DNA from: Candidatus Bathyarchaeota archaeon
Lineage (GTDB): Archaea > Thermoproteota > Bathyarchaeia > Bathyarchaeales > Bathyarchaeaceae
DNA: 64,000 nt
Direction of reading: 5' to 3'
Assembly: GCA_030608565.1 (NCBI GenBank)
Contig: JAUWDY010000004.1
Coordinates: 14,103 to 78,102, forward strand
Shown here: piece by piece, positions 1 to 53,728 of the stretch
Layout: every line of letters begins with the position of its first letter
How positions within the stretch are numbered: the first letter of the stretch is position 1
Notes under the pieces: model-generated
Databases searched by the model: none
What the model was told of the DNA's origin: nothing
Seen by the model: the letters and a program-made list of their open reading frames with translations, nothing else
Translations under genes and position numbers: made by a program

Positions 1-506
1 GTTTTCCAGTCATACACCGACCTGACCCAGAAGACTACACAGTTCATACCCAATAATCTGGCGGCATATGACAAAGCGGTTCCCCATTGACCTGCTCCAG
101 TTTCAGTAGCAAGCGTTTCTTTCCCCTCTTTTGCTGCAAAATATGCTTGAACGATGGCAGTATTGGTCTTGTGGGATCCTGTTGGAGACAAGTCTTCTCT
201 CTTGTAGTATAATTTCGTCTTTTTTAATCCAAGATACTTTTCAAGTCTTCTAGCTCGGTGCAGCGGTCTCGGTCTGCCCATTTGAACGTAGAGCTCTCTT
301 ACCTCTTCTGGTATTGGAATCCATCGTTGACTTGAAGACTCTTGTTTCAGGCATTCTTTTATCATGGTTCTTGATAGAAATTCGAGGCGAGACGGGCCTT
401 CTTCCGGTTCCTTTGGAGGCGGAAGAGGTTCGGGCAAGTCCGATATGATGTTGTACCATTTTGTGGGCAACTCATCCACGGGAAGTAAAACCTGATTCTT
501 GTTCAT
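1..506 (-). CDS. trpB2: TrpB2-type tryptophan synthase beta-like PLP enzyme, N-terminal part (gene continues past window start)
   Basis: Own minus-strand translation from ATG at 506: MNKNQVLLPVDELPTKWYNIISDLPEPLPPP...YYKREDLSPTGSHKTNTAIVQAYFAAKEGKETLATETGAGQWGTALS. The SPTGSHKxNTA (PLP lysine) and GAGQWG motifs plus the N-terminal extension are typical of TrpB2. The frame is open to position 1, so it is missing from the ORF track. Confidence 0.8.
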   Translation of the reverse strand, partial: MNKNQVLLPVDELPTKWYNIISDLPEPLPPPKEPEEGPSRLEFLSRTMIKECLKQESSSQRWIPIPEEVRELYVQMGRPRPLHRARRLEKYLGLKKTKLYYKREDLSPTGSHKTNTAIVQAYFAAKEGKETLATETGAGQWGTALSYAARLLGMNCVVFWVRSVYDWK

Positions 507-567
507 GTTTTCACCAAGTATGAAGAGCATATTATAAACAGAGTGTAGAGATAAAGCTTTCACTCTT

Positions 568-1446
568 TTATGTAGACGGTTTTTCTGGTTTAGATAGAAT
601 CTCTATTGAAGTCAACATGCGTGAAGTGAGTTCCACCTGATCGGAAAAGCCCTTTCTTGCATACGCGTTTTTTATTTTGATCCAAGTTCCCGGTGTTAAA
701 TTCTTTACAATATTCACAAGTGTTCTCCACGCGGAAACCCAAATTTTTCCCGTGTCATCTTCCAGCTCAAAAGAGGAAACTGCAACCGTCTCACCTCTGG
801 ATGTGACAACATCCCTTGTTATTGGTGTAGTTGCCACAGTTCCTTCAACAGTGATGGGTCCATTCGCCTTCTTTACCTCAGCAATCTTTTTTGTTTCTTC
901 GTGGAAATCATTGATCGATGCATATTTATTCTCTAAGGCGTCAGAAGGAAGAGTTTGAATACTTCCCCGCAAGCCAACGTGTAACTCAAGCTTTCCACTT
1001 CGCCCCTCTCGCACATACCCATGTGAAACCCTTACTATCTGCTCCTGTTCAAAGCTTCCAGCCTCTACGAGGCTCGTTTTTTCATCCCAAAGAACAACCT
1101 TCAATGTTCCAGTTTTATCCGCGATGAGTAAATGCGCAACTCTGCCTTCTGTCCAATCTGAACGCGTGAAAGTCTTGGGAGGGTAAATAGCCATCACATG
1201 TCCGGTTACTGTTACGTCTCTTAACCCTGATACAAGGTCTCGGACTAAAACTTCGGATTGAAAAGGCTCGTGTCGAATTTCCAACCCCAACTCTGAAGCG
1301 ACGAGTCGCGCTGCAACTTCATTCGTGAAAAATCCCCTTGCTTCCCTTTTTTTCTTTTCGATCATCTTTAAGACTTTTTCGCGCGTAAGGGCTGGTCTGG
1401 ACGATAAAATTTGTACGATGACTTCATTGAAACTCATGTCGCTCAC
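568..1446 (-). CDS. RPA-like single-stranded DNA-binding protein (OB-fold repeats)
   Basis: 292-aa ORF. A helical N-terminus is followed by two OB-fold-like segments (VTVTGHVMAIYPPKTF..GRVAHLLIADKTGTLKVVLWDE and ITVEGTVATTPITRDVVTSRGETVAVSSFELEDDTGKIWVSAWR), as in archaeal RPA/SSB. Confidence 0.6.
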   Translation of the reverse strand: MSDMSFNEVIVQILSSRPALTREKVLKMIEKKKREARGFFTNEVAARLVASELGLEIRHEPFQSEVLVRDLVSGLRDVTVTGHVMAIYPPKTFTRSDWTEGRVAHLLIADKTGTLKVVLWDEKTSLVEAGSFEQEQIVRVSHGYVREGRSGKLELHVGLRGSIQTLPSDALENKYASINDFHEETKKIAEVKKANGPITVEGTVATTPITRDVVTSRGETVAVSSFELEDDTGKIWVSAWRTLVNIVKNLTPGTWIKIKNAYARKGFSDQVELTSRMLTSIEILSKPEKPST

Positions 1447-1527
1447 TAAAAATCGTGGCGTGTCGATTTAAATATATGTTTGTTGAACATCTAGAAATTT
1501 TAGGAAAAGATTTTGATCTAAAAACCT

Positions 1528-1713
1528 ATGGTATGTCAAAAGCACAGCAAGCGTTGCATGCATGCCCAGTGGTTCGGGGGCCTTTATGTGGATACCACCA
1601 CTTCCACGATAGGATTCGGTGTTGGGTCATATGCTTTTTGGATGATAATACTCGGTGTTGCTGTAACAGCTCTGGGCGTTGTTTTATTTGTTGTATTGCG
1701 GAACCGAACGTGA
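1528..1713 (+). CDS. small hypothetical membrane protein (start uncertain, possibly the ATG inside tgcATGcATGc at 1558/1562)
   Basis: ORF-track 61 aa with one clear hydrophobic helix (YAFWMIILGVAVTALGVVLFVVL). No recognisable family. Confidence 0.3.
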   Translation: MVCQKHSKRCMHAQWFGGLYVDTTTSTIGFGVGSYAFWMIILGVAVTALGVVLFVVLRNRT

Positions 1714-1720
1714 AAAAAGG

Positions 1721-1837
1721 CTATGTGGTTTTTTCTTCTCTGCCGTAAACCATGTATAAAAAGGCTAAAAATAACACGAGAAAGGCTACTACCATCATGA
1801 TGTTGATGATAATCGTGAAGTACGCTGCTATGTCCAT
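1721..1837 (-). CDS. very small hypothetical membrane peptide (38 aa)
   Basis: Own translation: MDIAAYFTIIINIMMVVAFLVLFLAFLYMVYGREEKTT, a single TM helix. Below the ORF-track size cutoff. Confidence 0.25.
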   Translation of the reverse strand: MDIAAYFTIIINIMMVVAFLVLFLAFLYMVYGREEKTT

Positions 1838-1875
1838 GACGGGTCCCTATCCCCTTATTTTTACAAGACACCTAT

Positions 1876-2286
1876 TTAAGGTGTAACCTTTTTCCACTCC
1901 TCTATCAAAGAGTCATACAGTTGGTCATTTTCCTCCACCAAATCATAAATTTCTAGGGCTTCCGCCAGCTTTTGTGCAATAAGATGATAACACAAATGAA
2001 TTTTCCTATTCATCGCACGGAAGTAAAAATCGTCGCAGGAACAAAAATCAGCGGCCGGCATGACAAGGTATTCTCGCTCTTTACCGACCACAATCCAAAC
2101 GACCCTACCACTCGGCTCAAAAACGTATTTTTTTATTCTTCTTTCGTTTAAGGCTTCCCAAGCTTTCGTAAATCGCGAGCCAAACACTGTGGAAAGTCGA
2201 CTGAGATGCGCTTTTATCACTCGGTTTTTCATTTTAGCTTCTTTGCAAACGTGTTTGAGCACTTCGGTCTCCGATGCTTTTTTCAT
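1876..2286 (-). CDS. SWIM zinc-finger domain protein
   Basis: CxCxnCxH signature in DFCSCDDFYFRAMNRKIHLCYHLIAQK near the C-terminus of a 136-aa ORF. Confidence 0.6.
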   Translation of the reverse strand: MKKASETEVLKHVCKEAKMKNRVIKAHLSRLSTVFGSRFTKAWEALNERRIKKYVFEPSGRVVWIVVGKEREYLVMPAADFCSCDDFYFRAMNRKIHLCYHLIAQKLAEALEIYDLVEENDQLYDSLIEEWKKVTP

Positions 2287-2496
2287 AGGTCTCTCTGTTA
2301 ACTATAATGTGAAAAATATAATAGCATTTATGCATGTGCTATTGCTCTGTCTCTTTGAAGATAATGGAATGTTATGATTTTCTATCTTTACAACCATTTA
2401 GAAAATAAAGTTCAGTTTAAGGAGTCTGAAGTGCGATCTTGAGGAGGCGTTGTTGTCGTTGTGTCTTCCCTAGTTTCGCTGAGCCTTTCTTTTTTC

Positions 2497-3123
2497 CTAT
2501 TCGATTTTTATCGGTTCTCCTTTTGTCTTCTTTTTCTCTCTAATTTTCGGTAGAGTAACCTCTAAGACTCCATTTTTATAAACCGTCTTAGCCTTGTTAG
2601 GAATGACCGCCACTGGCAACTTGATTTCTTTGAAGTATTTACGTTTAGGCGTGTCAACTGAGACAGTTAACGTGTTTTCTATTCCATGCAGTTTGATATC
2701 TTTCTTTTCAACCCCAGGCAATTCAGCTACAACTTTGACTTCATCGTTGGTGCTTACCACATCTACGAGTGGTTCACGTTCCTCTTTAACGTCAAAAGTA
2801 GGCCTTGTGAGCCCAAAGGCTTCGGGTTTAAGCGAAGGCTTGATGTTGCCAAATTCCCTTATCTTCGGTTTTCCATCTGGACCGACGGTCATACTGTAGC
2901 CGTAGACGAAGGGCCCCCACTCACGGATGGTTGAACCGTCTGGAAGCTTATGTTCACGTACCAAATCCTTTGGGACACGGGTGCGGAATTCCTTAAATTC
3001 TCTCTCCATTATCTCCTCCATGTCTTTGATCATCTCATCGATGTCTCCGAGAAACCAGCTTCCGAAATAGGGAAAGCGACGCATCCTTCTTCTGAACCAT
3101 TCTGGAAAATATTCCCAACTCAT
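2497..3123 (-). CDS. hsp20: Hsp20/alpha-crystallin family small heat-shock protein
   Basis: C-terminal alpha-crystallin domain: PLVDVVSTNDEVKVVAELPGVEKKDIKLHGIENTLTVSVD...AKTVYKNGVLEVTLPK. Confidence 0.85.
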   Translation of the reverse strand: MSWEYFPEWFRRRMRRFPYFGSWFLGDIDEMIKDMEEIMEREFKEFRTRVPKDLVREHKLPDGSTIREWGPFVYGYSMTVGPDGKPKIREFGNIKPSLKPEAFGLTRPTFDVKEEREPLVDVVSTNDEVKVVAELPGVEKKDIKLHGIENTLTVSVDTPKRKYFKEIKLPVAVIPNKAKTVYKNGVLEVTLPKIREKKKTKGEPIKIE

Positions 3124-3193
3124 AATCGTTCACCTTTGCCAAAAAAACACATAATTAGAATTCTATAAAAATCTATCCATTTTTAATACTTGT

Positions 3194-3409
3194 ATGTGGG
3201 CCGCTGAATGTTTGATTCGTGAAAGATGTATGTTAAGAATGATAGAGCAACTGGTAAAGCAGTTGGCTAATCCTAGTGAATTTTTCAATAGCGTGCGAAT
3301 CGAGAATTGGAAACCCGGCTTCGTTTTCTTTCTACATGCATCAAGAGTTATAGCAGAACAGAAAGAGCTAATAAACTTCTGGAAGACACAAAAGAAATAC
3401 TATGACTAG
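3194..3409 (+). pseudogene. possible N-terminal fragment of a Yip1-like membrane protein (speculative)
   Basis: MIEQLVKQLANPSEFFNSVRIENWKPGFVFFL resembles the cytoplasmic N-terminus of Yip1/DUF1282 proteins. The expected TM helices never follow. The sequence diverges at tacatgcat (3333-3341). Confidence 0.2.
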
Positions 3410-3430
3410 CCTTTCTGAACGAGGGTTGTA

Positions 3431-3592
3431 ATGGTGCACATTAGAACAGTCGCAGCCATTCTGATGTTGTTCGTCGTAACATTGCTCATTCTAAACAAAT
3501 TCTTAAGATCAGAATGGATATGGCTCATATCCATTGCTATAATGATAATGGCAGTTCTAATTTATTTCATTCCTCGGCTAAGGAAAATGTAG
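3431..3592 (+). CDS. small hypothetical membrane protein (53 aa)
   Basis: Own translation: MVHIRTVAAILMLFVVTLLILNKFLRSEWIWLISIAIMIMAVLIYFIPRLRKM, two hydrophobic helices. Confidence 0.3.
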   Translation: MVHIRTVAAILMLFVVTLLILNKFLRSEWIWLISIAIMIMAVLIYFIPRLRKM

Positions 3593-3704
3593 AGACCCTG
3601 TCGTCATTGCTGAGAGACTATTCATGAAAGCAAGCTACTGGTAGCCATAGTCTACAGAAGAAAACCTAAATCCAACTGTTGTTGAATCTTTCAGTGGTGA
3701 TTAC

Positions 3705-4031
3705 GTGTCTTTGACTTTACGTGATGCTCAGCATCTCTGTTGGAAAAACTTCAAGAGGATTAATGAGAGGCTTGACCCAAAAAGGAGTAAAGGCTGGACG
3801 CCTTTTGTCATGGTTACGGATTTACTTGAAGAGGCTGGCGAGGTGGCTGCTGCGGTCAAGGGGTTAGAAGGCTTCAAGCCGCCTGACAAGCCTAAAACAA
3901 AAGAGATGTTAGCCACAGAGCTCTCAGACTTGCTTTACATAATCTTCGTTTTGGCTGAGCATTACGGAATAAACCTAGAAGAATCGTTTCTGCAAACAGT
4001 AAACGACTACATACTCAGGTTCATAAGCTAA
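3705..4031 (+). CDS. MazG-like nucleotide pyrophosphohydrolase domain protein
   Basis: 108 aa. The EExxE-type acidic helix pairs (LLEEAGEVAAAVKGLEG ... ELSDLLYIIFVLAEHYGINLEE) are typical of the small all-alpha MazG/NTP-PPase family. Confidence 0.7.
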   Translation: MSLTLRDAQHLCWKNFKRINERLDPKRSKGWTPFVMVTDLLEEAGEVAAAVKGLEGFKPPDKPKTKEMLATELSDLLYIIFVLAEHYGINLEESFLQTVNDYILRFIS

Positions 4032-4283
4032 ACAAATGGGCACTGCTCCAACATCCCTACAAGATACATACGAGGATTTGTATGGAGACACCACACAGCA
4101 TTCCATGCCTACGTAGAGGTAGTCACTTGCTGCTGGGACATAGAAAACAGCTGGATCAGAAGTAACAGGTTTTCTGAAGTAGCACACTTAGCGCGCACAC
4201 TACTTAGTAGTCCTAATTGCGGTTTCATAAGCTTTAACTCCAATTATATTACGAACACTATATGAACAAGTAATAGGTGATTA

Positions 4284-4709
4284 GTGATGAAAATCCATAA
4301 ATTGATGGTTAAAGACGTTATTACTCTGCAAACAGATGCATCAGCTTATGACGCTGTAAAGCTTATGAATAAGAATAGAATAGGTTGCTTAGTGGCTTTA
4401 GATAACGGCAAGATCGTTGGGATTTTAACTGAAAGAGACCTGCTTGAAAGAGTTTTAGAAAAATGCAAGAATCCAAAAGAAACTAGGGTTTCAGAAATAA
4501 TGACAAGACAGGTCATAGTTGGAAAGCCAGACATGCAACTTGTCGAAGCTACAAGACTTATGTTTGAAAACAAAGTGAAGAAACTACCTATAGTAGAGGG
4601 AAACCGATTAGCAGGTCTAGTAACCTTGACCGACATAGCTCGCGCTACAAGTGTTGACAAAAAAACCTTAGAACTAATTGAAGCACTGTCAAACATGCAT
4701 ATGATCTAG
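4284..4709 (+). CDS. CBS domain pair protein
   Basis: Two CBS repeats (MVKDVITLQTDASAYDAVKLMNKNRIGCLVALDNGKIVGILTERDL and IMTRQVIVGKPDMQLVEATRLMFENKVKKLPIVEGNRLAGLVTLTDI). Confidence 0.9.
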   Translation: MMKIHKLMVKDVITLQTDASAYDAVKLMNKNRIGCLVALDNGKIVGILTERDLLERVLEKCKNPKETRVSEIMTRQVIVGKPDMQLVEATRLMFENKVKKLPIVEGNRLAGLVTLTDIARATSVDKKTLELIEALSNMHMI

Positions 4710-4781
4710 TAAGTCTATGCTGTTTGCGCGCGCAATTGTATGAAAGAGAGTTTTCGGTAAATCTTCTTGTTTAGGGCATTG

Positions 4782-6866
4782 TCACAATTTTCTGTGACGT
4801 TTTTCCCAGAAGTTCCTTATTTGTTCAGCGCAGTCGATTGAACCTCTCACGATTTTCATCTCCTTCTGGAAGTAGCTTGGGAGTTGCTGTTTGATGCTTG
4901 GGCGAGTGACACGCTCATCCAAGATGGCTATACATCCTTTATCACTGGATGATCGGTGAACTCGCCCACAAGTCTGAATCAGTCGAAGTATTGCAGGGGT
5001 TAGGTAAGCGTAGGTTCTGCCTTCTCTTGGAAACTGGCGACTGAAGTAACCTATCAAGGCCTTTTGATAAACAGTCCAAGTTGCATAAGGTAGGCCCACA
5101 GCTACTACGCATGTTAAGAGGTTGCCTGGATAATCTATTCCCTCACTGAACTTTCCACCCATAACCCCAAACAATACGTTGTCCGCTGACCTAGTTAACT
5201 GCTCCATCACCTCGCCTCTCTTAGTCCTGCGTTGTTCCACGATTTCTTTCCTGTCAGTTTTGACCAGTGGTAAAATGGTGTGCATCAGTGCGTAACTGGT
5301 GAAGAATACAGCCATATTGCCTCCATTCGCCTTGGATATGGCTTCAATATAGTCTTTCCACTTCTCAAGCATTTTGCTAGTCCTCTTTTCAAACCTTGAT
5401 GACACGTCCTTCGCGGCTAAAATCAGCCTATTCTCAGGCGGGAATGGAGAATCAAACTCTTTGAGATAGACGCCACCGTGGTTATGGAGCATCAAGTCTC
5501 TATAGACTTTTGGAGGAGAAAGAAAACCACTCATTAGGATGCTTCCCCGCGCCTGTTGCAAAACAGGATCTGTTATCTCTCTTCCATCGAAGCTCCTGAC
5601 CTCTAAAACGATTCTGCCCCTCCAATCCCTCCGAATCAAATGAATGTACGCCGATCCAACTTTTTCGAAGAAGTTCTCCATGAACTCGCCCACCCGGTGG
5701 TTGTAGCTGAAAATCCTCTCGTAGCCCTGTTCGCGTCGCGTCTCCCTCACATAATCTCCATATTCATGAAGTGTTTTTGCGGCTTCAGAACCGGATGCTC
5801 CACTTCGGTTAAGAAACACGTCACCAACTTCCTGGGGGTTAAGCCGCCTAAGCTTTTCTTTTATCAAGACCTCTCGGGCGCGTTCAAAAACCCCATCGTT
5901 TAACACGCTTAAATACTCTTGAACTAATGGGACAGCTTCATGCTCGAACGTTTCGGTTTCTCTGAGAGCCCCCTCCAACGTGTTTTGTGTCAAGCGGTCA
6001 GAAAGCAACCCCCTAGAAAACGCTGGAACATTGTGCGCCTCGTCCACAATAAGATAGACGTTAGACAAACTCACTCCGAAACTCTTTAGCAGCGCCTCCC
6101 TAACCGATGGATTAAAGGTGTAGTGGTAAGTTCCAAGGAAGATGTCCACTCGGTTGAGAACACGCTTTAACGCCTCATAAGCGCAGAACCCGTGCCGAGC
6201 CATTCGCCTAACTGCCTCTCTCGGAGCAAGAATTTTCCGGGCACAATCCAAGGCCAGTTCTTCAACTTCCTTCTTTCTTCTGTTTATGTTCCAATAAAAT
6301 TTGCAATAAGGCTTAATAGAGGACTCACAGTTATCCTTCAGCCTCCGACACTCCTCAAGAAAGTCAAAATAGGAGAGTTCGCCTTTTATGCGCAACGGGC
6401 ACATGTCCTGTTTGCTGAAAAAGGATACAGCCGAGGGGTTACTTCCAAGCGCCCTTAACTCTTTGAGATAAATGTGTAATTGGTTTCTGGTTCTGAAACA
6501 GATCAAGAGTTTGTTCTCTCCCAGCTGGGGCAAGACAGCCAGCAGGGAGGCCAGAGACTTTCCTATGCCGCAGGGAGCACTTACGAGAAGGATATCATTA
6601 GTTTTGATGGCTTTGGACGCTGATGAAATAAATTCCATCTGTCCTTTCCGCGGTTCATAGCCTTCAGGAAGCCAGTCCACCTTCGAGACTTTGCCTCGCG
6701 CCTTTTTTTCCAGTGCCTCGCGCATTCCATTAGGAAGCTTAGAAAACTTCCTATTAGACATTAGGTATGTTCCACAACTGCGGCAAAACCGGCTTTGCTC
6801 ATACTCTTGATAGGAATATCTCCTTCCACACTTTCGGCAAATATAGGCTTGAGGCAACTTCCTCAC
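4782..6866 (-). CDS. XPD/Rad3 (DinG-family) SF2 DNA helicase with N-terminal zinc ribbon
   Basis: Walker A VSAPCGIGKS, DEAH box IVDEAHNV, a Cys cluster between them (CPLR..C..C..C) consistent with an Fe-S domain, C-terminal motif QTCGRVHRS, and an N-terminal CRKCG..CRSCG ribbon. Confidence 0.8.
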   Translation of the reverse strand: MRKLPQAYICRKCGRRYSYQEYEQSRFCRSCGTYLMSNRKFSKLPNGMREALEKKARGKVSKVDWLPEGYEPRKGQMEFISSASKAIKTNDILLVSAPCGIGKSLASLLAVLPQLGENKLLICFRTRNQLHIYLKELRALGSNPSAVSFFSKQDMCPLRIKGELSYFDFLEECRRLKDNCESSIKPYCKFYWNINRRKKEVEELALDCARKILAPREAVRRMARHGFCAYEALKRVLNRVDIFLGTYHYTFNPSVREALLKSFGVSLSNVYLIVDEAHNVPAFSRGLLSDRLTQNTLEGALRETETFEHEAVPLVQEYLSVLNDGVFERAREVLIKEKLRRLNPQEVGDVFLNRSGASGSEAAKTLHEYGDYVRETRREQGYERIFSYNHRVGEFMENFFEKVGSAYIHLIRRDWRGRIVLEVRSFDGREITDPVLQQARGSILMSGFLSPPKVYRDLMLHNHGGVYLKEFDSPFPPENRLILAAKDVSSRFEKRTSKMLEKWKDYIEAISKANGGNMAVFFTSYALMHTILPLVKTDRKEIVEQRRTKRGEVMEQLTRSADNVLFGVMGGKFSEGIDYPGNLLTCVVAVGLPYATWTVYQKALIGYFSRQFPREGRTYAYLTPAILRLIQTCGRVHRSSSDKGCIAILDERVTRPSIKQQLPSYFQKEMKIVRGSIDCAEQIRNFWEKRHRKL

Positions 6867-6903
6867 ACATCATCACTCTACTACATGCAACATATGCTCT
6901 GGC

Positions 6904-7182
6904 TTAATGTGTGCGTGCATTCGCTAAATTCGATTTACTATAAATATTAACTAATCGTCGTTTTTTGCTGTGGCTGAGCGTTTTGATCTCTCGTTCTCTC
7001 TTCATAGCCTCGCTACGACTGTCGAACTCCTCCACGTACACTATCTTCTCAAACTGATGTACCCTCGTATACTTGGCGCCTTGACCCTTTCTATGCCGTT
7101 CAACTCGCCGTTCCACGTCCTTGGCGTATCCAGTGTAATAACTGCCATCTTTGCAAAGAAGGATGTAGACATAGTAAGGCAT
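6904..7182 (-). CDS. GIY-YIG nuclease superfamily protein (UPF0213-like)
   Basis: MPYYVYILLCKDGSYYTGYAKDVERRVERH..G.GAKYT is the classic GIY-YIG N-terminus. 92 aa. Confidence 0.85.
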   Translation of the reverse strand: MPYYVYILLCKDGSYYTGYAKDVERRVERHRKGQGAKYTRVHQFEKIVYVEEFDSRSEAMKREREIKTLSHSKKRRLVNIYSKSNLANARTH

Positions 7183-7390
7183 CCATCATCAACTCACAGC
7201 CAATAAACAAACCTAACAGTCTCTTTTAAAGAGAGTCGTATACTGCACAAGATTGGAATGCATGAATGCACTAAGGGAATTTCTACAGCGGAAAATAATA
7301 GACCTTAAATGTTCACATCGGGGGATGTCTTCACACTTATGTCCATAGAACCTCACACCCTGCAAGACAAGTTCGGAATGTTAAATCTAT

Positions 7391-7555
7391 CCCCCTACCC
7401 CCCCTCTATAGGGGGGTCTATAAAAGAGAGAATGAGTGACTGCGAAAAAAATTATAGGGGGGGCTATAGGGGGTCTATAAAAAGAGAGATACACACAAAT
7501 AACGTGACAAAACGGATAACCTCAAAACTCAACACTAACGAAACAGACACACTTT
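7391..7555 (+). repeat. copy A (internally duplicated) of a promoter-like G-tract/TATA core plus C/A-rich leader; no downstream ORF
   Basis: ccccctaccccccctctataggggggtctataaaagagag, then aaaaaaattatagggggggctatagggggtctataaaaagagagatacacacaaataacgtgacaaaacgg... Alignable by eye to 20257-20357 (reverse) and 53275-53441. Confidence 0.7.
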
Positions 7556-7599
7556 CCTTCATCTTTCGCTTCAAAAAATCTTGCCGTAACCTTAACCTA

Positions 7600-9426
7600 T
7601 CACCAAAACTGAGGTCTCTGAGACAAAAATCTAGGAAGCGTTAGAGACCTGAAAGGTTTACCCTCCAATTTCTCCTTCACTTCATCCATCAACTCACGAA
7701 GTGACATCTTTCTAATCTTCCTAGTCTCTCTATCTCTAACTGCAAGCATGCCAGAATCAACTTCCTTTTGGCCAATCACAACTATATAGTTGATCCACGC
7801 CATCTCCGCTTCTCTAACCTTCTTTTGCATAGTAATTGACCTATCATCCACATCAACTCTTATTTGATACCCCTCAATCTCATCTGCTATTTTTTCAGCA
7901 TCTTTGGCAAAACTATCTGAAACAGGTATCACCCTTACTTGAATAGGGGAAAGCCACAAAGGCAGACGAGGGATCTTTTGTTTCAACGCCGTGTCAAAGA
8001 CGGTGAAAATATACCGTTCAATTCCCCCTAAAACAGCAATGTGTAAGATTGGTGGGTAAACCTTCTCCCTGTTTCTGTCCACGAATTTTATACCAAATCT
8101 TCGTGCATTGCCAATGTCAATTTGGAAAGTAGCGATTTCTCGCGGTCTCTTCAACTCATCAATAATGTTATACTCGACGTTTATGACCCAGTAATATTTC
8201 TTTTCAGGAACAAAACGCAGCAGAACCGGTTTCTTCTCAATTTCAACCAACTGTCCTAGAAACTCTCGATTCTTCTCAAAGAAACTCTTCGTTAAGTTAT
8301 ACACCGAAACATAATCGTTTCCAAGTTCCCTTATCTTCTCGTAAATTTTCTTATGGACCCTTATTGAAACCTGCTTCGCATGTTCCAAACCTTTGCAGAA
8401 AATATGATAATCCGGCATGTAAAATCTTCTAAGCCTAAACCCTAGCAAACATTCACCCGACTGCTCCAACCTGTAACTATCAGCAATTTCAAACATTCCA
8501 AGCGGTATTTGCCTATAGCTAATTGTCCAATCTTTTATCATCGAAAATTGCTGAAAGCAAGCTGCATATTTTAGAACATACTCTTCATTGCCAACCCGAA
8601 CAGTATACAGTCTTTCACCAAACAAATCAGCATGTTCCTTAATCGCGGGAATATTCAGATTAAACAAATTCGTCCCTTTAATAGAAAAACTTGGTATTCC
8701 CAATTCAGTCACGCTTTGCCAAGCATAATCTCCAGCCAAATCAACCATCAACGCAGCTTTCGGACCATATCGCATATGACCAGAATCAGAACTCGACTCC
8801 CACTCAAACCCAAACTTCTTCAATACACTGATAAACCTAGGCTCTCCGCCAACAGCCTCTTTCTTAAAAGCCTCCTTTTCTACTAATGCCTTAAAATCTT
8901 CTTCACCCTTTCCGAATTTGTAATCTTCAGCGAGCACAGCTCTGCCATCTAGCGCTAATATTAAATACTCTGGCTTAGGGATTTTCCATTTCTTTTTCTT
9001 CTCTTCTTTTAATTCACCTGGCAGAATTATTTTCGCCTGCTCAGCTAGAGGATGCCCCTTTATTGAAATTGAAAACTGTTTGCACCAACCAAATGGAGCT
9101 CTATAGGTTTTGATGCCTACTTCCTTCGCATGTTTATCCATCGCTTTGACTATTCTTAAGGCAGTGATGGGGTTCGCCAAAGTGTTGCTCAGATGAGCGT
9201 AAGGGTATATCAGAATCCGGTTGACCTTCAATTTCTCAAGAGATGACTTAATTTCTTCTATTGCTTTTTTGGCAACAGTCTCGTCGTCTCCTTGCTCAAC
9301 ACAAGTGAATAAGACAATAAGCTCTTCGAGTCGATGCTTCTTTTTCTCGCATTCTTCAGCGATCGCCGCCTCTTTCTTTACAGGCTTATATTCTATGAAG
9401 TTTGAGTGCAGTTGAAGTATCCTCAA
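7600..9426 (-). CDS. thrS: threonyl-tRNA synthetase, archaeal type with N-terminal editing domain
   Basis: 608 aa. The N-terminus MRILQLHSNFIEYKPVKKE is typical of the archaeal ThrRS editing domain. A class II catalytic core and a C-terminal anticodon-binding domain follow (PIQVRVIPVSD...IRVDVDDR..MQKKVREAEMAWINYIVVIGQKE). Confidence 0.9.
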   Translation of the reverse strand: MRILQLHSNFIEYKPVKKEAAIAEECEKKKHRLEELIVLFTCVEQGDDETVAKKAIEEIKSSLEKLKVNRILIYPYAHLSNTLANPITALRIVKAMDKHAKEVGIKTYRAPFGWCKQFSISIKGHPLAEQAKIILPGELKEEKKKKWKIPKPEYLILALDGRAVLAEDYKFGKGEEDFKALVEKEAFKKEAVGGEPRFISVLKKFGFEWESSSDSGHMRYGPKAALMVDLAGDYAWQSVTELGIPSFSIKGTNLFNLNIPAIKEHADLFGERLYTVRVGNEEYVLKYAACFQQFSMIKDWTISYRQIPLGMFEIADSYRLEQSGECLLGFRLRRFYMPDYHIFCKGLEHAKQVSIRVHKKIYEKIRELGNDYVSVYNLTKSFFEKNREFLGQLVEIEKKPVLLRFVPEKKYYWVINVEYNIIDELKRPREIATFQIDIGNARRFGIKFVDRNREKVYPPILHIAVLGGIERYIFTVFDTALKQKIPRLPLWLSPIQVRVIPVSDSFAKDAEKIADEIEGYQIRVDVDDRSITMQKKVREAEMAWINYIVVIGQKEVDSGMLAVRDRETRKIRKMSLRELMDEVKEKLEGKPFRSLTLPRFLSQRPQFW

Positions 9427-19545: not shown

Positions 19546-19731
19546 GTCTTTGTATTCAATCTGTGCGTTTTAACTTAAATTTTGCTTGCTATTGTAGTGA
19601 ATTCGGGAGTTTCTTTGCTTCAAAAGATGTGGTAGAACTTGGCGTAAGTCGTTGTTTTTGATCACAACATGTACGTGTTTTTCGACGGTTTTTTCTGTTG
19701 GATTGAAGGCTATTCCGAGGACTACTTTCTC

Positions 19732-20253
19732 TCATAAGAGTATGAGGGTTTCATCGTCGCCAACTGCTGCGCATTCTGTTAGTCTTGTGTTGAATTTTTG
19801 CAGCATGTGGTATAATGCTTTGTCTTTGTTGTGGAATGAGACGTTGACTTTTACATCGCCTGTGAGGAGTCCATTTTGAATGATTAATTCGTTGGCTATG
19901 GAATCGTCGACTTTTGTTTCTCGTTTGATTCTTTCTGTTATCAATGTTAAGCCCGCGCTTAGCAGAATTGTTTTGAGGTTGTTCTGTTTTAGCGTGGTTA
20001 TGACGTCTTGGGTTCCGTCTGTGTAGGGTATGTGATCAATTATTCGTTGAATTCTCTTTATGGGTAGGCCTTTCCAGAGTGAGGCGTCTAGTTTAGCCCA
20101 TTCTTCGTATGTGATGGTTCCTTGGTGAAACTGTTTAGCGTGTTGTTTACCTTTGTGCCATGTGCCTAGTTTTTCGTGTAGGAACTGCCAGCTGCTATTA
20201 ACCTTTATCAAGGTGCCGTCGACATCGAAAACTACTAGTTTGAGAGTTCCCAT
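19732..20253 (-). CDS. HAD-superfamily phosphatase (phosphoserine-phosphatase-like), ends at an in-frame TGA with homologous sequence continuing downstream
   Basis: Motif I VVFDVDGTL, motif II LLSAG, motif IV region AVGDDET. After the TGA at 19734-19732 the same frame reads EKVVLGIAFNPTEKTVEKHVHVVIKNNDLRQVLPHLL, the usual PSP C-terminus, down to TAA at 19572-19570. Confidence 0.8.
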   Translation of the reverse strand: MGTLKLVVFDVDGTLIKVNSSWQFLHEKLGTWHKGKQHAKQFHQGTITYEEWAKLDASLWKGLPIKRIQRIIDHIPYTDGTQDVITTLKQNNLKTILLSAGLTLITERIKRETKVDDSIANELIIQNGLLTGDVKVNVSFHNKDKALYHMLQKFNTRLTECAAVGDDETLILL

Positions 20254-20256
20254 TTG

Positions 20257-20357
20257 TGGTAAACCTCGTTAGAGTTGAGTTGTGTTAGTTTGGGTTGATG
20301 TGTTGTCACGCTATTTGCGTTTGTCTCTCTCTTTAGACCCCCCCTATAATTTTTTTA
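20257..20357 (-). repeat. copy B of the promoter-like G-tract/TATA core plus C/A-rich leader, directly upstream of the HAD gene
   Basis: Minus strand: aaaaaaattataggggggggtctaaagagagagacaaacgcaaatagcgtgacaacacatcaacccaaactaacacaactcaactctaacgaggtttaccacaaATG. Shares aaaaaaattatagggggg, gtcta.aagagaga and caaata.cgtgacaa.ac with copy A. Confidence 0.7.
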
Positions 20358-20481
20358 ATGAATTTATAGAGCGGTGTAGTTTGATGTGAGATTTTTGTGT
20401 TTGTTATGTTGTGATCTGTATTTTCAGTATTGATTTTCAGATCGTAAAGCATATTGTTTAGTCTTTTTTAACTAGGGCACG

Positions 20482-20709
20482 GTGGAAAACTTGAACAGGA
20501 TTCTTTTTACTACATGTAAAGAGTTGATTGACGATGCTAAGCTGGGGTGTATTGACATGGTTTTCAAGGATTTATGTATTGAAATTCTGGCGAAGGCGAA
20601 GTTGGTCTTGTCAGACGAACAGTTTGAGGAGCTGTCTTTATACGTGGCGGAGCGATTGAAGGAGAAGTTAATGAGGAATCCGAGGCATCGTGAAAGGATT
20701 CATGTGTAA
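20482..20709 (+). CDS. hypothetical small helical protein (GTG start)
   Basis: A 75-codon ORF in a C-poor stretch, where stop codons should be frequent, so it is unlikely to be open by chance. No family recognised. Confidence 0.4.
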   Translation: MENLNRILFTTCKELIDDAKLGCIDMVFKDLCIEILAKAKLVLSDEQFEELSLYVAERLKEKLMRNPRHRERIHV

Positions 20710-21495
20710 CTAGTTTTTCATTTTGTCTGCTGTTCTCAATCATCAGTTTTTTGCATCACTGTGCTATAACAGTTCGAAGAGTTGCAGTTTGTGCGTTAAA
20801 GCAGTTCTGACGGAAAGTCGATCGGTTACAACAGAGATTCCTTTTTCTGTGCATGGAAAAGTCCAGAGAGCGTACTTGTCTTACGCTGTAAGAAAAAACA
20901 GAAAGAAATCTTTTATTGGCACTTTTAGTTGTTGCTTGTTATTTGTCCTATGAGGTGGACGTACTCTCTGATCGCCTTTTTCCGCTCTTCGCCATCGTCG
21001 CTGGAATCAATGAACCTTCGCAACCGAAACGCACGACGTTTCAAACTTTGAATGTTCAAAAACATCTCCCTCGTTGAAAGACTCTTCTTACCCGCTCTAC
21101 AAACCTCACTTATAAGCGTTATGCTGTTCGAATCCGATTCACTAATCAGTTTTGTTTTGCAACCTCAAGGGTCAGCAAAATTGTATTGTTTCTCGAATGT
21201 TAATTTGAAACCGCGATTCAAGATTTCTATGCTGAATTGGAGATGAAAAAGAAGTCAAAAAGGTTGCACGAGTTCTTCGGAATCACGAAGGTAGCTAAGA
21301 AGTTCGATCGTTGTTCGGGAAGGTTTCGCATCAACATAAGCTGCAAGACAGTCACAGACCTGACGCCGCGAGCACTGGCGGTGATAAAAGCCTTTGAAAT
21401 AGGCATACCAGGAACGCGAACGCACACTCTACGACAACGTCGAACTGCGCTTACGGCCACAAGACACCGTGTACATCACAAAAGTTTGAATCGGC

Positions 21496-27560: not shown

Positions 27561-28700
27561 CTAGACGTTAGACTGAACCAAGATTTGCAGTGGCTTCTCT
27601 CTTCTCTTTTTGGGGACATTTGGCACAGGGATTTGCTGAATCACTTCCAAGGGTTCTGCTGTGATTTCTGCCGAGGCTTGTGCAAACTCTATGAGTAGTA
27701 CGCGGATTTTTTCAAGAAGTCTGGCGATCTGTGTTCCTTCTTCTGTTAGGGCATATGTTTTTGGACGCTTCCGTTTAAATGTAAGTTTCTTGCCTCTGAG
27801 TTTTCTTAGATACTTGTAGGTTCTCCGTAAGGAAATGTTTGTTTTATTAGCAAGTTTTTTGGCTGTTATGCCTTCTTCTGGGATGCCTTGGTAAACGCGT
27901 TTTTCCGTTGATGAAAGCTTCTCTTGTTGAGGATCTCTTCTTGTTTTGAAGTAGAAGATGTAATTGTTTTCATCATCTTTTGTTATGAGGTTTGCCGCGT
28001 GAAGACGTTTAAGAACTCTTGATAGGCTTTCAGTCGGGATTAGGAATTCTAGTTTTTCATAGGTTTTTGAGCCGTTAAACAATGCTTTAACCGTTTTTTC
28101 TTCATAACATTCGGAGTGAGGCGGCAGAAGTTGCCCAATGCCACTGAAATCTCCTATTAATTCGTTAAGCTTGTAGCCGAACACTGTCGTGTGGTACTTG
28201 TTGTGGTTTTCTTCAACTAATCCAACCTCTATCAAGGGGGCAACGTATTCTTCAGCTATTGTTCGTTGGCTATGATAAAAGCCTAGTTTTTTCAGTTTTT
28301 GTTGAAGTCTAACTATGGAATATCGTCCTTTCGAGAGTGTTTCCAAAAGTTGTAGGCGTCTCCTGTTCTTTAACGTGTTTAGTAAGTTTGTCACGAAGTT
28401 GGGGTTTTTCATCTTTCGGCCTAGTTTTCTGAGTTCATTCTTCAGTTTCCAAATGTTGCATCGGGTTACACATATCATTGGAGTTAATGGATGGCAGTCT
28501 TTGCAGGTTTCTTTCGCCTCTTCCAGCACTTCTGTTATGCTTGTTTTTCTTTGTGTCGCTTGTAGTGGTCTTGAACGAATTTTGGTTATCGTGGCGCCAG
28601 ACTTCCGCTGACGTGTGTCATAAGAATCGTTGAAAACTTTTTCAGAAGCAAGTTGAGGAAAAAAGAGAGGGGTTTTTTCTGTGGGTTTCACGTCTCTCAC
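27561..28700 (-). CDS. multi-wHTH (ArsR-like) transcriptional regulator with N-terminal Cys cluster (GTG start)
   Basis: CKDCHPLTPMICVTRC, then NLLNTLKNRRRLQLLETLSKGRYSIVRLQQKL (ArsR-type HTH) and further wHTH-like repeats (SRVLKRLHAANLI; ISLRRTYKYLRKL). Confidence 0.6.
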   Translation of the reverse strand: MRDVKPTEKTPLFFPQLASEKVFNDSYDTRQRKSGATITKIRSRPLQATQRKTSITEVLEEAKETCKDCHPLTPMICVTRCNIWKLKNELRKLGRKMKNPNFVTNLLNTLKNRRRLQLLETLSKGRYSIVRLQQKLKKLGFYHSQRTIAEEYVAPLIEVGLVEENHNKYHTTVFGYKLNELIGDFSGIGQLLPPHSECYEEKTVKALFNGSKTYEKLEFLIPTESLSRVLKRLHAANLITKDDENNYIFYFKTRRDPQQEKLSSTEKRVYQGIPEEGITAKKLANKTNISLRRTYKYLRKLRGKKLTFKRKRPKTYALTEEGTQIARLLEKIRVLLIEFAQASAEITAEPLEVIQQIPVPNVPKKRREKPLQILVQSNV

Positions 28701-28707
28701 GTCCTCT

Positions 28708-28743
28708 TATGACATACGTCATAGTTAATATGACATACGTCAT
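28708..28743. promoter_or_regulatory. two identical 15-mers tatgacatacgtcat spaced 21 bp apart (TGAC-N4-GTCA inverted-repeat operators)
   Basis: 28708-28722 and 28729-28743 are identical. Each contains the inverted repeat atgac/gtcat. They lie in the divergent gap between two regulator genes, 8 nt from the GTG of 27561-28700. Confidence 0.6.
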
Positions 28744-28787
28744 TCTTATATACTTTCCCCGTACAGCTAAATAGCGGTGAAAACCGC

Positions 28788-29183
28788 TTGATACTGCCCT
28801 GCGAAATCGCCGTAAAGTCAGTTATACCAGCAATAAAAGCAACAATGGCCAAAGAACTCGTGGAAACACACGGCCTAAAACAGGACCAAGTAGCTGAGAT
28901 CCTAGGAGTGTCTCAATCTGCAGTAAGTAAATACACTCGGCATGTTAGGGGTCACGTGATAAAAATTGACAACGTAGAAGGAATACAACCTCTGATAAAT
29001 AGTATGATAAACCTGCTCGTAGATGGAAGCTCAAAAAGAACCGAATTTCTAGGACTATTCTGCCAAATATGCATAATAATACGCAAAAATGGTCTGATGT
29101 GCCCGTTTTGTCAGAAAACAGACCCAAAAATCAAAATGGAAGAATGTAGCTTCTGCCTAACCTACGAACCAACTTCAAAATGA
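28788..29183 (+). CDS. HTH (XRE/COG2522-like) transcriptional regulator with C-terminal Cys-rich domain
   Basis: GLKQDQVAEILGVSQSAVSKY HTH. C-terminal CQIC...CPFC...CSFC. Confidence 0.65.
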   Translation: MILPCEIAVKSVIPAIKATMAKELVETHGLKQDQVAEILGVSQSAVSKYTRHVRGHVIKIDNVEGIQPLINSMINLLVDGSSKRTEFLGLFCQICIIIRKNGLMCPFCQKTDPKIKMEECSFCLTYEPTSK

Positions 29184-53148: not shown

Positions 53149-53274
53149 GGAAACGTCCGCAAACTGTTTATTTATTTTCTGAGGCCTTCATGATTCATAG
53201 GCTCATATCATAGGATACAGAATATTGGTTATCTATTTGACGACATTGTATACATGCTTATTCAGTACGGACTA

Positions 53275-53441
53275 CCCCCTCAGGTATAGGGGGGCTATAG
53301 GGGGGTCTAATAAGAGAGAGACACGCCCAAACAACACAACAAACACAAAACCATACAGAAAACACAGCACATATAAACAACCACGCATTATATCGAACAT
53401 TCCACGAGGAACCAACCGTGACAGAACAAACAACAACCACC
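53275..53441 (+). repeat. copy C of the promoter-like G-tract/TATA core plus about 120-nt C/A-rich leader, directly upstream of the zinc-ribbon gene
   Basis: ccccctcaggtataggggggctataggggggtctaataagagagagacacgcccaaacaacacaacaaacacaaaacc... Core aligns with copy A (tataggggggGctataggggGtctaTaaAaagagaga). Confidence 0.7.
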
Positions 53442-53603: not shown

Positions 53604-53728
53604 GAGAATTTTTCTTCATACACTTGTTGCAGGCACCCCTGTGCATACATTAGATAAACTGCACTTTGACTAGTGAGATAATTTTAAATGGTCTCTATCC
53701 TCTGTTTTCATTAGAGGCTTTATAATAG

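Follow-up and report, generated by a model that had tools for sequence, protein, structure and literature searches.

A promoter-like unit dispersed in Bathyarchaeia and associated with a polar A+C strand skew

Three loci in a 64-kb stretch of Bathyarchaeota DNA (the whole of which is called the window here) carry copies of an oriented, promoter-like unit that forms a family of common anatomy in related genomes. The unit is associated with a polar strand skew. DNA beyond it is A+C-rich on the motif strand, also where the genes run the other way, and substitutions polarised at one of the loci have the corresponding direction. The data point to a strong direction-specific mutational process, of which we found no description in the literature.

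Cores of the form GGGGGTCTA-N1-6-AGAGAGA number four in the window, spread over three loci (copy A at 7412+ and 7469+, copy B at 20342- and copy C at 53301+), against none in 100 shuffles (chance expectation 0), and TATAGGGGG is found six times where 0.15 are expected. The first-pass annotation had described a repeat at these three loci, and core counts far above chance bear it out. Orientations of the three copies differ within 46 kb. When 60-nt segments are ranked by A+C content, the tracts that follow the cores (7475-7557 for copy A, 20246-20446 on the minus strand for copy B and 53301-53523 for copy C) are among the richest of the window (0.69-0.75).

Copy A lies on the plus strand and has two units. 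The first (7398-7431), recognised by motif matches and folding, is a C7-TCTATA-G6 hairpin (7398-7416, predicted -14 kcal/mol) overlapping core 1, TATAGGGGGGTCTATAAAAGAGAGA (7407-7431). The second (7445-7489) reads A7-TTATA-G7-CTATA-G5-TCTATAAAAAGAGAGA, in which the A-run or the G-run is a candidate BRE, and TTATA and/or TCTATAAAA a candidate TATA box; this unit and copy B are the arms of one 19-nt exact inverted repeat. The conserved proximal element CACAAATAACGTGACAAAA follows (7490-7512), a predicted initiator by its spacing and by consensus across units, so that the start site would fall near 7504-7506. Between copy A and the stop codon of thrS, which is encoded on the minus strand, is an A+C-rich tract with no ORF (7490-7599), conserved beside thrS at the related loci L133, L145 and L236.

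Copy B, on the minus strand, has the core A7-TTATA-G7-TCTAAAGAGAGAGA (20324-20356), then the proximal element CAAATAGCGTGAC (20317-20305) within an A+C-rich tract (20254-20323) that reaches the start codon of a HAD-family hydrolase gene and holds GAGG 11 nt ahead of the ATG. Its upstream flank and core (20299-20654) are 92.5% identical to the unit preceding a 16S rRNA gene at L191. The HAD ORF (19732-20253, minus strand; Pfam PF12710 and PF00702) lies inside the skew domain of copy B. It stops at an in-frame TGA, a point on which the earlier description needs correction, and the reading frame goes on beyond, so that the ORF looks like a decaying gene.

Copy C, on the plus strand, consists of a C5 run and TATA-G6-CTATA-G6-TCTAATAAGAGAGAGA with tandem G-runs (53275-53321, by motif matches), followed by an A+C-rich tract that includes GAGG and runs up to a start codon (53322-53441). 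It is fully conserved in a strain (L062) that is 98.5% identical across the 6.7 kb aligned. The gene inside its skew domain encodes a small zinc-ribbon protein (53442-53603, plus strand; Pfam PF07754, E=2e-21) named Ribosomal_aS21 in the precomputed annotation; these boundaries, the length of 53 aa and the Pfam assignment correct those given before.

Across copies the unit can be read as (A-run)-TATA-G6-7-TCTAWAAAG-AGAGAGA-CAYACG-CAAAYAACGTRAC. The last element is conserved 26-30 nt downstream of TCTAWAAAG; measured from the G of AAYGT to the T of TCTA, the distance is 26-30 nt in 101 of the 120 units having the motif. Archaeal core promoters have an A/T-rich TATA box centred about 26 nt before the start site and a purine-rich BRE immediately upstream of it. 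In the unit, G6-7 and then TCTAWAAAG stand 26-30 nt ahead of AAYGTRAC, with a rival, A7-TTATA, 12 nt further upstream. As candidates we take the G-run (or the A-run) for the BRE and TCTAWAAAG (and/or TTATA) for the TATA box. This promoter reading is probably right; the start site and the promoter activity of each copy are predicted from sequence.

The units are strictly intergenic. Pfam-confirmed co-directional genes 73-305 nt downstream of units encode POR alpha, methylmalonyl-CoA mutase (MCM), a proteasome subunit, malic enzyme and S28e. One unit is 322 nt upstream of a 16S rRNA gene (L191) and another 61 nt upstream of a tRNA, and none of the other six tRNAs in the loci directly follows a unit. 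The genes just named as lying downstream of units, as well as HAD and aS21, are co-directional with their unit and have no other promoter, and neither HAD nor aS21 has a further TATA-like sequence in the stretch from unit to start codon. About 40% of units face convergent genes, a near-random orientation, and these have no such co-directional gene.

The RNA runs were all unstranded assembler contigs (Logan) and give depth only. At L095 this unstranded depth is 0-35 upstream of the unit and 300-8700 downstream, a jump of more than 20-fold. At copy C, unstranded contigs cover 53285-53608 and leave 53064-53268 uncovered, with depth 0 upstream and 20-108 downstream. Some contigs cross a core from upstream sequence, so we infer initiation inside the unit rather than read it from the contigs. 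At copy A the depth of the A+C-rich tract equals that of thrS and there is no step across the thrS skew boundary described below, so these unstranded contigs give no direct sign of antisense RNA there.

Beyond the window, the unit was found at 187 or more distinct sites in related MAGs and metagenome contigs (including at least 120 metagenome loci). Its core motif was enriched in Bathyarchaeia MAGs in a genome scan, and we take the family to be restricted to a sub-clade of Bathyarchaeia. Among the matches listed, 46 of 187 have a C-run hairpin ahead of the core, and 50 of 187 a tandem G-run. Often the unit closes, on the 3′ side, a 290-nt cassette in which a hairpin, a T-rich spacer and two CAAGCTT boxes come ahead of the core; of this cassette there are at least 42 near-full copies. 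Similarity among copies stops about 25 nt past the core. The number of sites, the BRE/TATA/initiator-like spacing, the copy before a 16S rRNA gene and the depth jump together uphold the earlier proposal of a dispersed, conserved promoter-like module. A recent local duplication, the caveat that had been attached to it, does not account for the similarity; copies are widespread in relatives. Matches on viral contigs (16) all lacked the flanking anatomy of the unit and resemble chance or unrelated repeats, so a viral origin is unsupported; genome-scan matches outside Bathyarchaeia likewise lacked this anatomy.

Orthologous loci differ in their upstream modules, and one homology breakpoint coincides with the end of the unit. 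Three different upstream forms precede HAD orthologues among relatives (L110 and L142 are without the stretch matching 19685-20158 of the window), and the spacer between thrS and the GIY-YIG gene has the unit in the window and L236 and is missing it in L237 and L238. Exchanged modules and such a breakpoint fit a promoter-bearing repeat that spreads or recombines, as had been suggested at first. Presence/absence polymorphism at orthologous sites, as at the thrS-GIY-YIG spacer and upstream of HAD, is also a property of MITEs; the two ends of the 290-nt consensus (TCTGACACAAGCC... and ...CGTAACAAAA) do not form an inverted repeat, and by eye no target-site duplications flank the cassette in the alignments.

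It is very improbable that the copies encode small non-coding RNAs of one family or serve as a conserved 5′ leader with a regulatory role (a riboregulator). Copy A does have no ORF, its 110-nt tract is conserved beside thrS in several genomes, and the RNA-run contigs include that tract. However, neither the window at the Rfam gathering threshold nor the full cassette at E<=1 matches any Rfam family (a tRNA scan of the window likewise had no match), the similarity of copies ends so soon after the core, the tracts are essentially unstructured and unable to form a stable structure, and the compositional feature runs for kilobases through genes on either strand. The small-RNA proposal of the first-pass annotation is thereby disfavoured, as is its emphasis on a conserved long leader. 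The C/A-rich tract taken for that leader is the first part of a 1-2 kb domain that spans convergent genes, and A+C richness extends beyond the leaders.

A+C on the motif strand, over 150 sites, is 0.71 at 0-100 nt from the unit, 0.64 at 100-200, 0.58 at 900 and 0.50 from 2.1 kb, so the skew is strongest in the non-coding proximal tract and fades over about 2 kb. Little or no skew (A+C <0.55) was seen at 17 of 122 sites. Downstream genes have an AC3 (A+C at codon position 3) of 0.78 as compared with 0.50 for others (p=1.4e-6). In the window, AC3 is 0.79 for HAD and 0.91 for the zinc-ribbon gene against about 0.50 for other ORFs, in agreement with the A/C-ending codons remarked on earlier, and aS21 orthologues without the full core (one retains a remnant) have only 0.57-0.70. 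Conversely, six Pfam-confirmed convergent genes have a sense-strand A+C of 0.27-0.35; essential convergent genes under the skew include uS12, thrS, Elp3 and PhoU. Read on the motif strand, the four-fold sites of co-directional genes have A.54, C.29, G.07 and T.11, and those of convergent genes have A.58, C.30, G.04 and T.09. Both are about 85% A+C, where the background is A.30, C.21, G.20 and T.29. A phase-based scan without Pfam gave 50 co-directional and 33 convergent cases, with mean synonymous-phase A+C of 0.78 and 0.75.

Because the domain extends over convergent genes on the other strand, the skew is not a property of mRNA leaders or of codon usage. Translational selection on codon usage was rejected, since opposite-strand genes, non-coding tracts and the decaying HAD gene share the motif-strand composition; that a decaying gene keeps the skew in itself argues against such selection. 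Replication direction was ruled out as the cause by the window copies, which lie in both orientations within 46 kb.

Where the cassette is complete, the A+C-rich domain on its upstream side reaches as far as the hairpin and T-rich spacer and ends there, and skew resumes past the core. Domains were also examined for an end at the first oligo-T of the motif strand. The step there is 0.057-0.081 as compared with 0.026 at matched random positions, but it is uninformative because T-runs are by construction rare in A+C-rich DNA and because the domain in thrS continues past a T6 run of the motif strand at 7890. A three-state HMM of all positions found only the strongest domains and missed thrS, so third positions had to be analysed.

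In thrS the skew is limited to the 3′ 1.26 kb (7600-8860, minus strand), where synonymous sites are G+T-rich on the coding strand; GT3 (G+T at codon position 3) is 0.63-0.90 there and about 0.5 in 8874-9426. A G+T-rich coding strand of thrS is an A+C-rich strand for copy A. The skew is seen in the window and L236, both with a convergent unit, and not in L237-L239, which are without it. On the stem of the unit-bearing lineage, polarised substitutions towards G/T and in reverse number 47:14 in the skewed part, against 13:23 in the unskewed part as control (Fisher p=9e-5), and the tips of the tree have the same trend (41:21 and 4:11). Parsimony on the L237 branch gave an apparent reverse bias that we ascribed to homoplasy and left out. 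The thrS skew arose via C>T and A>G on the strand opposite to the motif strand, and these changes are located on the strand complementary to the presumed RNA of the unit.

As the mechanism of the skew we infer, with slightly better than even confidence, that strong-promoter units are shuffled between loci and that transcription, or a coupled process, skews strand mutation over 1-2 kb. The window copies would be members of a stereotyped strong-promoter family with a start site in the conserved AAYGTRAC about 28 nt downstream, and the unit would be the 3′ end of a 290-nt terminator-promoter cassette in related genomes, one copy heading a 16S rRNA gene. Recombination or some form of mobility would have moved units among loci, in either orientation relative to the neighbours. 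Mutation would differ between the two DNA strands as a result of rightward transcription from the unit or of a process coupled to it, which might be transcription-coupled repair or replication-transcription conflicts in which the template is left single-stranded. C>T and A>G would enrich the RNA-complementary strand in T and G, and unconstrained sites of the RNA-like strand would thereby reach about 85% A+C across 1-2 kb. HAD and the zinc-ribbon gene, with their A/C-ending codons, and the C/A-rich leader would show the proximal part of this footprint, and the G/T-rich 3′ part of thrS would show it from the other strand. Several points go against the explanation, among them the contigs that cross cores, the absence of an antisense sign at copy A, the T6 run inside thrS that leaves the domain unbroken and the 17 sites with little or no skew. 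Near-random orientation would imply strong antisense transcription of uS12, thrS and others, and the sign of the skew, with A+C on the RNA-like strand, is opposite to that of classical non-transcribed-strand deamination and departs from the general prokaryotic trend described below.

The orientation data also bear on a process at the DNA level, independent of transcription, in which the oriented unit (its G-run or hairpin) exposes the complementary strand for up to 1-2 kb and deamination of C and A there makes the skew. We consider this unlikely. The repeated exposure would come from strand-specific nicking with 5′-3′ resection, from a D-loop-like third strand or from polar replisome pausing. 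It would agree with a skew that is blind to gene orientation and with units oriented almost at random to genes. The make-up of four-fold sites (A.54-.58, C.29, T.09-.11, G.04-.07) and the occurrence of C>T and A>G on the complementary strand match mitochondrial single-strand deamination, and the strand laid bare would be the template of transcription, which in ordinary transcription stays covered. But the units are strictly intergenic with promoter anatomy, one of them heads an rRNA gene, and the domains end at the hairpin and T-rich, terminator-like spacer and restart past the core, as expected of a transcription unit. We saw no association of the units with nuclease or replication genes, and the differing orientations within 46 kb defeat simple replication direction.

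Selection on the RNA of very strong promoters, favouring G/U-poor transcripts and shaping synonymous sites under the transcript, seems to us quite improbable. Such transcripts might gain by being unstructured, by avoiding spurious start codons and U-tract termination and by forming fewer R-loops. The first 100 nt past the core do have little tendency to fold (mean MFE -7.1 kcal/mol, as compared with -13.5 in upstream controls), the genes downstream belong to central metabolism or the ribosome and have high RNA depth, and skew peaks in the non-coding proximal tract. However, convergent uS12, thrS, Elp3 and PhoU share the composition, where the RNA would be a by-product antisense, and the decaying HAD gene retains it. 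Avoidance of R-loops would favour pyrimidine-rich, not A-rich, RNA. The inferred changes are nearly all transitions, which is weak evidence since those of the control region mostly are too. Selection on nucleotide cost in prokaryotes favours U and C, not A (PMC4844684).

We give hardly any credence to the unit being mainly a reverse-acting terminator of converging genes, with skew from classical non-template deamination under their own transcription. On the complementary strand the unit is CCCCCCC-TATAATTTTTTT with more T-runs, and the unit and the CAAGCTT-box region alike are rich in T5-T7 runs there. The copy A tract has the depth of thrS, and for convergent genes the sign fits classical asymmetry. 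On the other side, co-directional POR, MCM, proteasome, aS21 and the 16S leader are skewed opposite to their own transcription, thrS orthologues without the unit are unskewed though presumably equally expressed, and in thrS only the 3′ 1.26 kb is skewed. The four-fold data contradict the terminator as sole explanation; they leave room for an additional terminator role beside the promoter role.

A stronger form of the promoter-linked explanation, which we hold tentatively and at somewhat less than even confidence, makes the unit the anchor of a promoter-polar hypermutation previously undescribed in a cellular genome, with neutral sites driven to about 85% A+C on one strand over 1-2 kb irrespective of the transcription of local genes. 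One candidate cause is a template strand that stays single-stranded for long periods in archaea that divide very slowly; another is a dedicated mechanism of the nick/repair or reverse-flow type. If so, the cassette would reshape the sequence, and partly the amino-acid composition, of whatever adjoins its landing site.

Classical deamination asymmetry gives a G+T excess on the coding (non-transcribed) strand, by C>T and A>G there. Here the coding strand of co-directional genes is A+C-rich, so the sign is opposite to the textbook one. The general transcription-associated skew of prokaryotes is towards U and C at four-fold sites (PMC4844684). Our skew has in common with it a strand asymmetry that keeps to transcribed regions and peaks at four-fold sites. 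It differs in giving an A+C-rich RNA-like strand (about 85% of four-fold sites) and in its attachment to a single promoter family, and it prevails over the transcription direction of neighbours and fades with distance.

In mitochondria, asymmetry is caused by strand-displacement replication of a whole small genome, during which the displaced strand is deaminated. Our skew resembles that of vertebrate mitochondrial DNA (reviewed in PMC3269012) in its near-identical four-fold composition on the A+C-rich strand, with G about 5%, in C>T and A>G on the complementary strand and in a gradient with distance. It differs in forming many 1-2 kb domains in a cellular chromosome, each from an oriented promoter-like unit, in both orientations within 46 kb.

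Putative mobile promoters are promoters propagated and re-used in prokaryotes (PMC3575422). They share with our units highly similar promoter-bearing intergenic sequences before unrelated genes, within and between related genomes, and exchanged modules. Unlike them, our unit belongs to a terminator-promoter cassette of 290 nt, and about 40% of its copies point towards convergent genes; we did not find a kb-scale strand-compositional footprint per copy reported for mobile promoters. Intergenic repeats of the halovirus HF2 (29-58 bp, AT-rich) carry promoters whose activity was shown by reporters (PMC8707807). These too are archaeal, short, conserved, repeated intergenic sequences with promoter motifs, whereas our units are chromosomal, absent from viral contigs, have G-runs and are promoters by prediction.

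Bathyarchaeia are an abundant, largely uncultured sediment lineage without genetic tools, and a literature search on their promoters and start sites, their codon bias and archaeal transcription-linked skew found nothing specific. For practical work on this lineage, the cassette would offer a strong promoter together with its terminator. A footprint that follows an oriented element whichever strand is coding gives a natural record of strand-specific mutation in very slow-growing cells. It would make such mutation during archaeal transcription testable, be it by transcription-coupled repair, replication-transcription conflict or persistent single-stranded DNA. In skewed regions, inference of expression or horizontal transfer from codon usage is misled, and both strands of these regions hold long open frames, which matters for annotation.

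Re-inspection of the window agrees with the three repeat loci described in the first-pass annotation: copy A (7391-7555, +), copy B (20257-20357, −) and copy C (53275-53441, +). The motif TATAGGGGG occurs six times against 0.15 expected, and the long core, GGGGGTCTA-N1-6-AGAGAGA, found at 7412+, 7469+, 20342− and 53301+, appeared in 0 of 100 dinucleotide-preserving shuffles; the repeat is real. Copy A does prove internally duplicated, with two cores, the first within a C7-TCTATA-G6 hairpin (−14 kcal/mol), and it has no gene of its own, being directed into the 3′ end of thrS as had been noted. Few 60-nt stretches of the window are as rich in A+C as the post-core tracts. The A+C fraction at codon position 3 (AC3) is 0.79 in the HAD gene after copy B and 0.91 in the zinc-ribbon gene after copy C (53442-53603, PF07754), against ~0.50 on average for other window ORFs, which bears out the A- or C-ending codons reported for both genes.

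The HAD hydrolase ORF stops at an in-frame TGA (19732-19734, −; …AVGDDETLILL*EKVVLGIAFNPTEK…), past which at least 40 further codons (19613-19731) remain open, resembling a normal C-terminus. Among loci from related MAGs and metagenome contigs, L099 carries the identical TGA, and L110 and L142 have no counterpart of 19685-20158, most of the gene. On this sequence the gene seems to be decaying, or its TGA to be read through.

A search for further copies, which the annotation had suggested, gave at least 187 distinct cores when genome-scan and metagenome matches were pooled; a narrower pattern matched at least 120 metagenome loci. In a scan of one genome per species the core was enriched in Bathyarchaeia, several MAGs being positive and a single one contributing at least 15 core loci. 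Scattered matches outside Bathyarchaeia were rejected, the flanking anatomy being missing, and viral contigs scanned for the core gave chance-like matches only. Window segment 52915-59635 shares 98.5% identity with a contig from a cold-seep Candidatus Bathyarchaeota MAG, and the public runs containing the window organism are cold-seep and marine-sediment metagenomes.

Sorted by immediate upstream sequence, the cores among the matches listed are of four kinds: an A-run plus TTATA (63, of which 39 have two CAAGCTT boxes farther upstream), a C-run pairing with the G-run (46), a further G-run, GGGGGGGCTATA (50), and other (19). At 42 or more places the core forms the 3′ terminus of a 290-nt repeat (the cassette), with 77-89% identity to the consensus. 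Its parts, from the 5′ end, are a hairpin ACCCCCCTAGGTAGGGG, a T-rich spacer with five ATCTTTT repeats, two CAAGCTT boxes, A7-TTATA-G6-7-TCTAAAGAGAGAGA, and CAAATAACGTRAC. Likeness among copies ends ~25 nt past the core, and the window holds short forms of the repeat only. Cassette alignments inspected by eye revealed no terminal inverted repeats or target duplications, and the unit is therefore not classed as a MITE. Orthologous loci show unit presence or absence and module exchange. Parallels to the unit as a repeated promoter are found in propagated promoters (PMC3575422) and in halovirus HF2, whose intergenic repeats carry promoters (PMC8707807).

Directly 3′ of the hairpin, the cassette consensus (e.g. 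L135 5921-6208) carries a 16-mer, GTAGGGGAACCTGCGG, that recurs unchanged in the 3′-terminal helix-45 region of the same lineage's 16S rRNA (near 10981 of L191, an 828-kb metagenome contig). It has seven exact occurrences in the fetched loci, one being the real 16S, which hints that the cassette may be derived from rRNA-operon sequence. A 379-aa window gene (27561-28700, −) has an A+C content of 0.62 (0.66 at third positions) with no recognisable unit upstream; its divergent spacer (28700-28790) contains two copies of the palindrome ATGACATACGTCAT.

The anatomy of the unit fits an archaeal promoter with a predicted start site. In 101 of the 120 listed units with a conserved AAYGT motif, 26-30 nt separate the T of TCTA from the G of that motif downstream; this is the usual archaeal TATA-to-start distance. 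A purine run directly upstream of TCTA occupies the BRE position. A7-TTATA is a second TATA candidate, 12 nt farther upstream; in the stretches leading from the units to the start codons of the HAD and zinc-ribbon genes, no further TATA-like sequence was found. Units are dispersed, conserved and oriented, and stand before rRNA and housekeeping genes. Pfam-confirmed co-directional genes after units encode pyruvate:ferredoxin oxidoreductase alpha, methylmalonyl-CoA mutase, a proteasome subunit, malic enzyme, S28e, an amidohydrolase and a metallo-beta-lactamase. One unit is followed after 61 nt by a tRNA, and another, in L191, lies 322 nt upstream of a co-directional 16S rRNA gene.

This pre-16S unit with its upstream flank (L191 12959-13316) is 92.5% identical to window 20299-20654 at copy B, and the homology ends just past AAYGT, to be followed by the HAD gene in the window and the rRNA leader in L191. 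An end of this kind implies that a rearrangement broke the sequence at the repeat; copy B is thus the counterpart of a predicted rRNA promoter, and units behave as recombination breakpoints.

RNA data came from small metatranscriptomes in which relatives of the window organism abound. Contig depth rises from 0-35 upstream of one unit to 300-8700 downstream, and from 0 over the 200 nt upstream of copy C to 20-108 downstream; for unstranded assembler contigs, some spanning the core, these depths are compatible with a strong promoter. Given the TCTA-AAYGT spacing, the units before 16S and housekeeping genes and these depth jumps, the promoter reading of the first-pass annotation is probably right.

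Upstream of copy B, in window 20367-21000, no ORF reaches 80 aa (a 75-aa ORF lies at 20482-20709, +), and RNA-run contig depth is 60-330, above that of the HAD gene; the stretch may encode a small protein or a non-coding RNA. In L019 (4519-4917, 5242-5379), another related locus, a 132-aa gene, PadR-like by eye and with AC3 0.83, reaches a contig depth of 800-8000 in metatranscriptomes of just 24-49 Mb, and the sequence immediately following the unit there has a 45-aa ORF on the opposite strand.

More remarkable than the repeat itself is the strand-polar composition beyond it. Over 150 listed sites, A+C on the motif strand (the strand on which the unit reads) is 0.71 at 0-100 nt downstream, 0.64 at 100-300 nt, 0.58 at 900 nt, 0.54 at 1.3 kb and 0.50 beyond 2.1 kb; upstream it goes from 0.57 to 0.52. 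The effect is common, not universal: A+C at +100 to +450 is at least 0.60 at 82 of 122 listed sites and below 0.55 at 17. Nearest co-directional genes have AC3 of 0.63-0.89, against 0.50 in 179 other ORFs (p=1.4e-6), and convergent genes are their mirror image, with sense-strand A+C of 0.27-0.35 in six Pfam-confirmed cases (a PhoU-domain protein, a SPOUT RNA methyltransferase, DUF4152 and DUF1616 proteins, archaemetzincin and ribosomal protein uS12). Four-fold sites on the motif strand read A.54, C.29, G.07, T.11 in co-directional genes and A.58, C.30, G.04, T.09 in convergent genes, against a background of A.30, C.21, G.20, T.29. A Pfam-independent, phase-based classifier, correct in 13 of 14 known cases, assigned 50 genes as co-directional and 33 as convergent, their mean synonymous-phase A+C being 0.78 and 0.75.

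Because convergent genes mirror co-directional ones, composition tracks unit orientation and not coding strand. This excludes selection on codon usage and any explanation based on an mRNA leader. The long C/A-rich tract seen in the annotation stands as an observation; it is part of a larger polar domain that is independent of coding strand, and the leader and small-RNA readings were wrong or incomplete. A small-RNA or riboregulator family we now consider very improbable. The same four-fold values contradict the unit as a reverse-orientation terminator being the sole cause, and that account, which would pair the terminator with a classical skew, has hardly any claim on us. Selection for transcripts poor in G and U we judge improbable.

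Two gene comparisons bear on the origin of the skew. G+T at codon position 3 (GT3) in thrS is 0.63-0.90 over the 1.26 kb nearest copy A, with a dip at 8004-8154, and drops abruptly to ~0.5 beyond 8874. L236 (CP070709; thrS protein 92% identical) has a somewhat diverged convergent unit and the same skew profile; L237 (86%) and L238 (81%), where a GIY-YIG gene directly follows thrS, and L239 (73%) have neither unit nor skew. Substitutions were polarised with outgroups and counted on the thrS coding strand as towards G/T : towards A/C. On the stem of the unit-bearing lineage they were 47:14 in the skewed part and 13:23 in the unskewed 5′ part (Fisher p 9e-5), and on the two tips 41:21 and 4:11 (Fisher p 0.008). 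The 47 stem changes included 29 C>T and 15 A>G. The zinc-ribbon gene has an AC3 of 0.91 where the unit is present; four orthologues lacking the full core have 0.70, 0.68, 0.59 and 0.57, and the first of them retains a core remnant. It follows that the skew originated, and continues to build up, in the presence of the unit, by C>T and A>G changes on the complement of the unit's strand.

The thrS skew is greatest (GT3 0.9) just before its abrupt end at about 8860, roughly at the junction of the N-terminal editing domain and the catalytic core. L236 breaks at the same place at 60-codon resolution (seven skewed windows, then about 0.5).

At full cassettes the hairpin plus T-rich spacer (A+C 0.54) closes the upstream A+C-rich domain and skew resumes past the core (0.70), borders such as a transcription unit between a terminator and a promoter would show. 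An A+C step at the first oligo-T was observed and is confounded by composition; in thrS the domain continues past a T6 run. We lean towards the unit being a strong promoter whose transcription, directly or indirectly, makes the two strands mutate differently. We consider rather unlikely a process that is anchored at the unit and independent of transcription, such as nicking, resection or a D-loop.

We regard the polar skew as a form of transcription-linked strand asymmetry that departs from the known one in sign, magnitude and its tie to a single element family; the literature we searched described neither such a skew nor Bathyarchaeia promoters. In the classical picture the exposed non-template strand is deaminated, which is opposite in sign to the skew here. 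Nor does the skew match the trend towards U and C that prokaryotes generally show at four-fold sites (PMC4844684). Established knowledge offers several candidate routes to the observed sign under promoter-driven transcription. Replication-transcription conflicts could leave the template strand single-stranded in either orientation, as the lagging-strand template at stalled forks when head-on, and through leading-strand gaps persisting after restart when co-directional. At R-loops the displaced strand might be excised and the gap then filled. Transcription-coupled repair could clear the template strand while O6-alkylG and O4-alkylT stay on the other, or the template strand may be repeatedly resynthesised in an error-prone way. 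In vertebrate mitochondrial DNA the strand opposite the A+C-rich one spends time single-stranded (PMC3269012). The four-fold composition of that A+C-rich strand is strikingly like that of our skewed domains.

Depletion of stop codons gives skewed domains (e.g. at the related loci L071 and L184) long open frames in either strand. Naive ORF calling in such DNA consequently yields spurious antisense genes, and homology or phase analysis is required to choose the frame.
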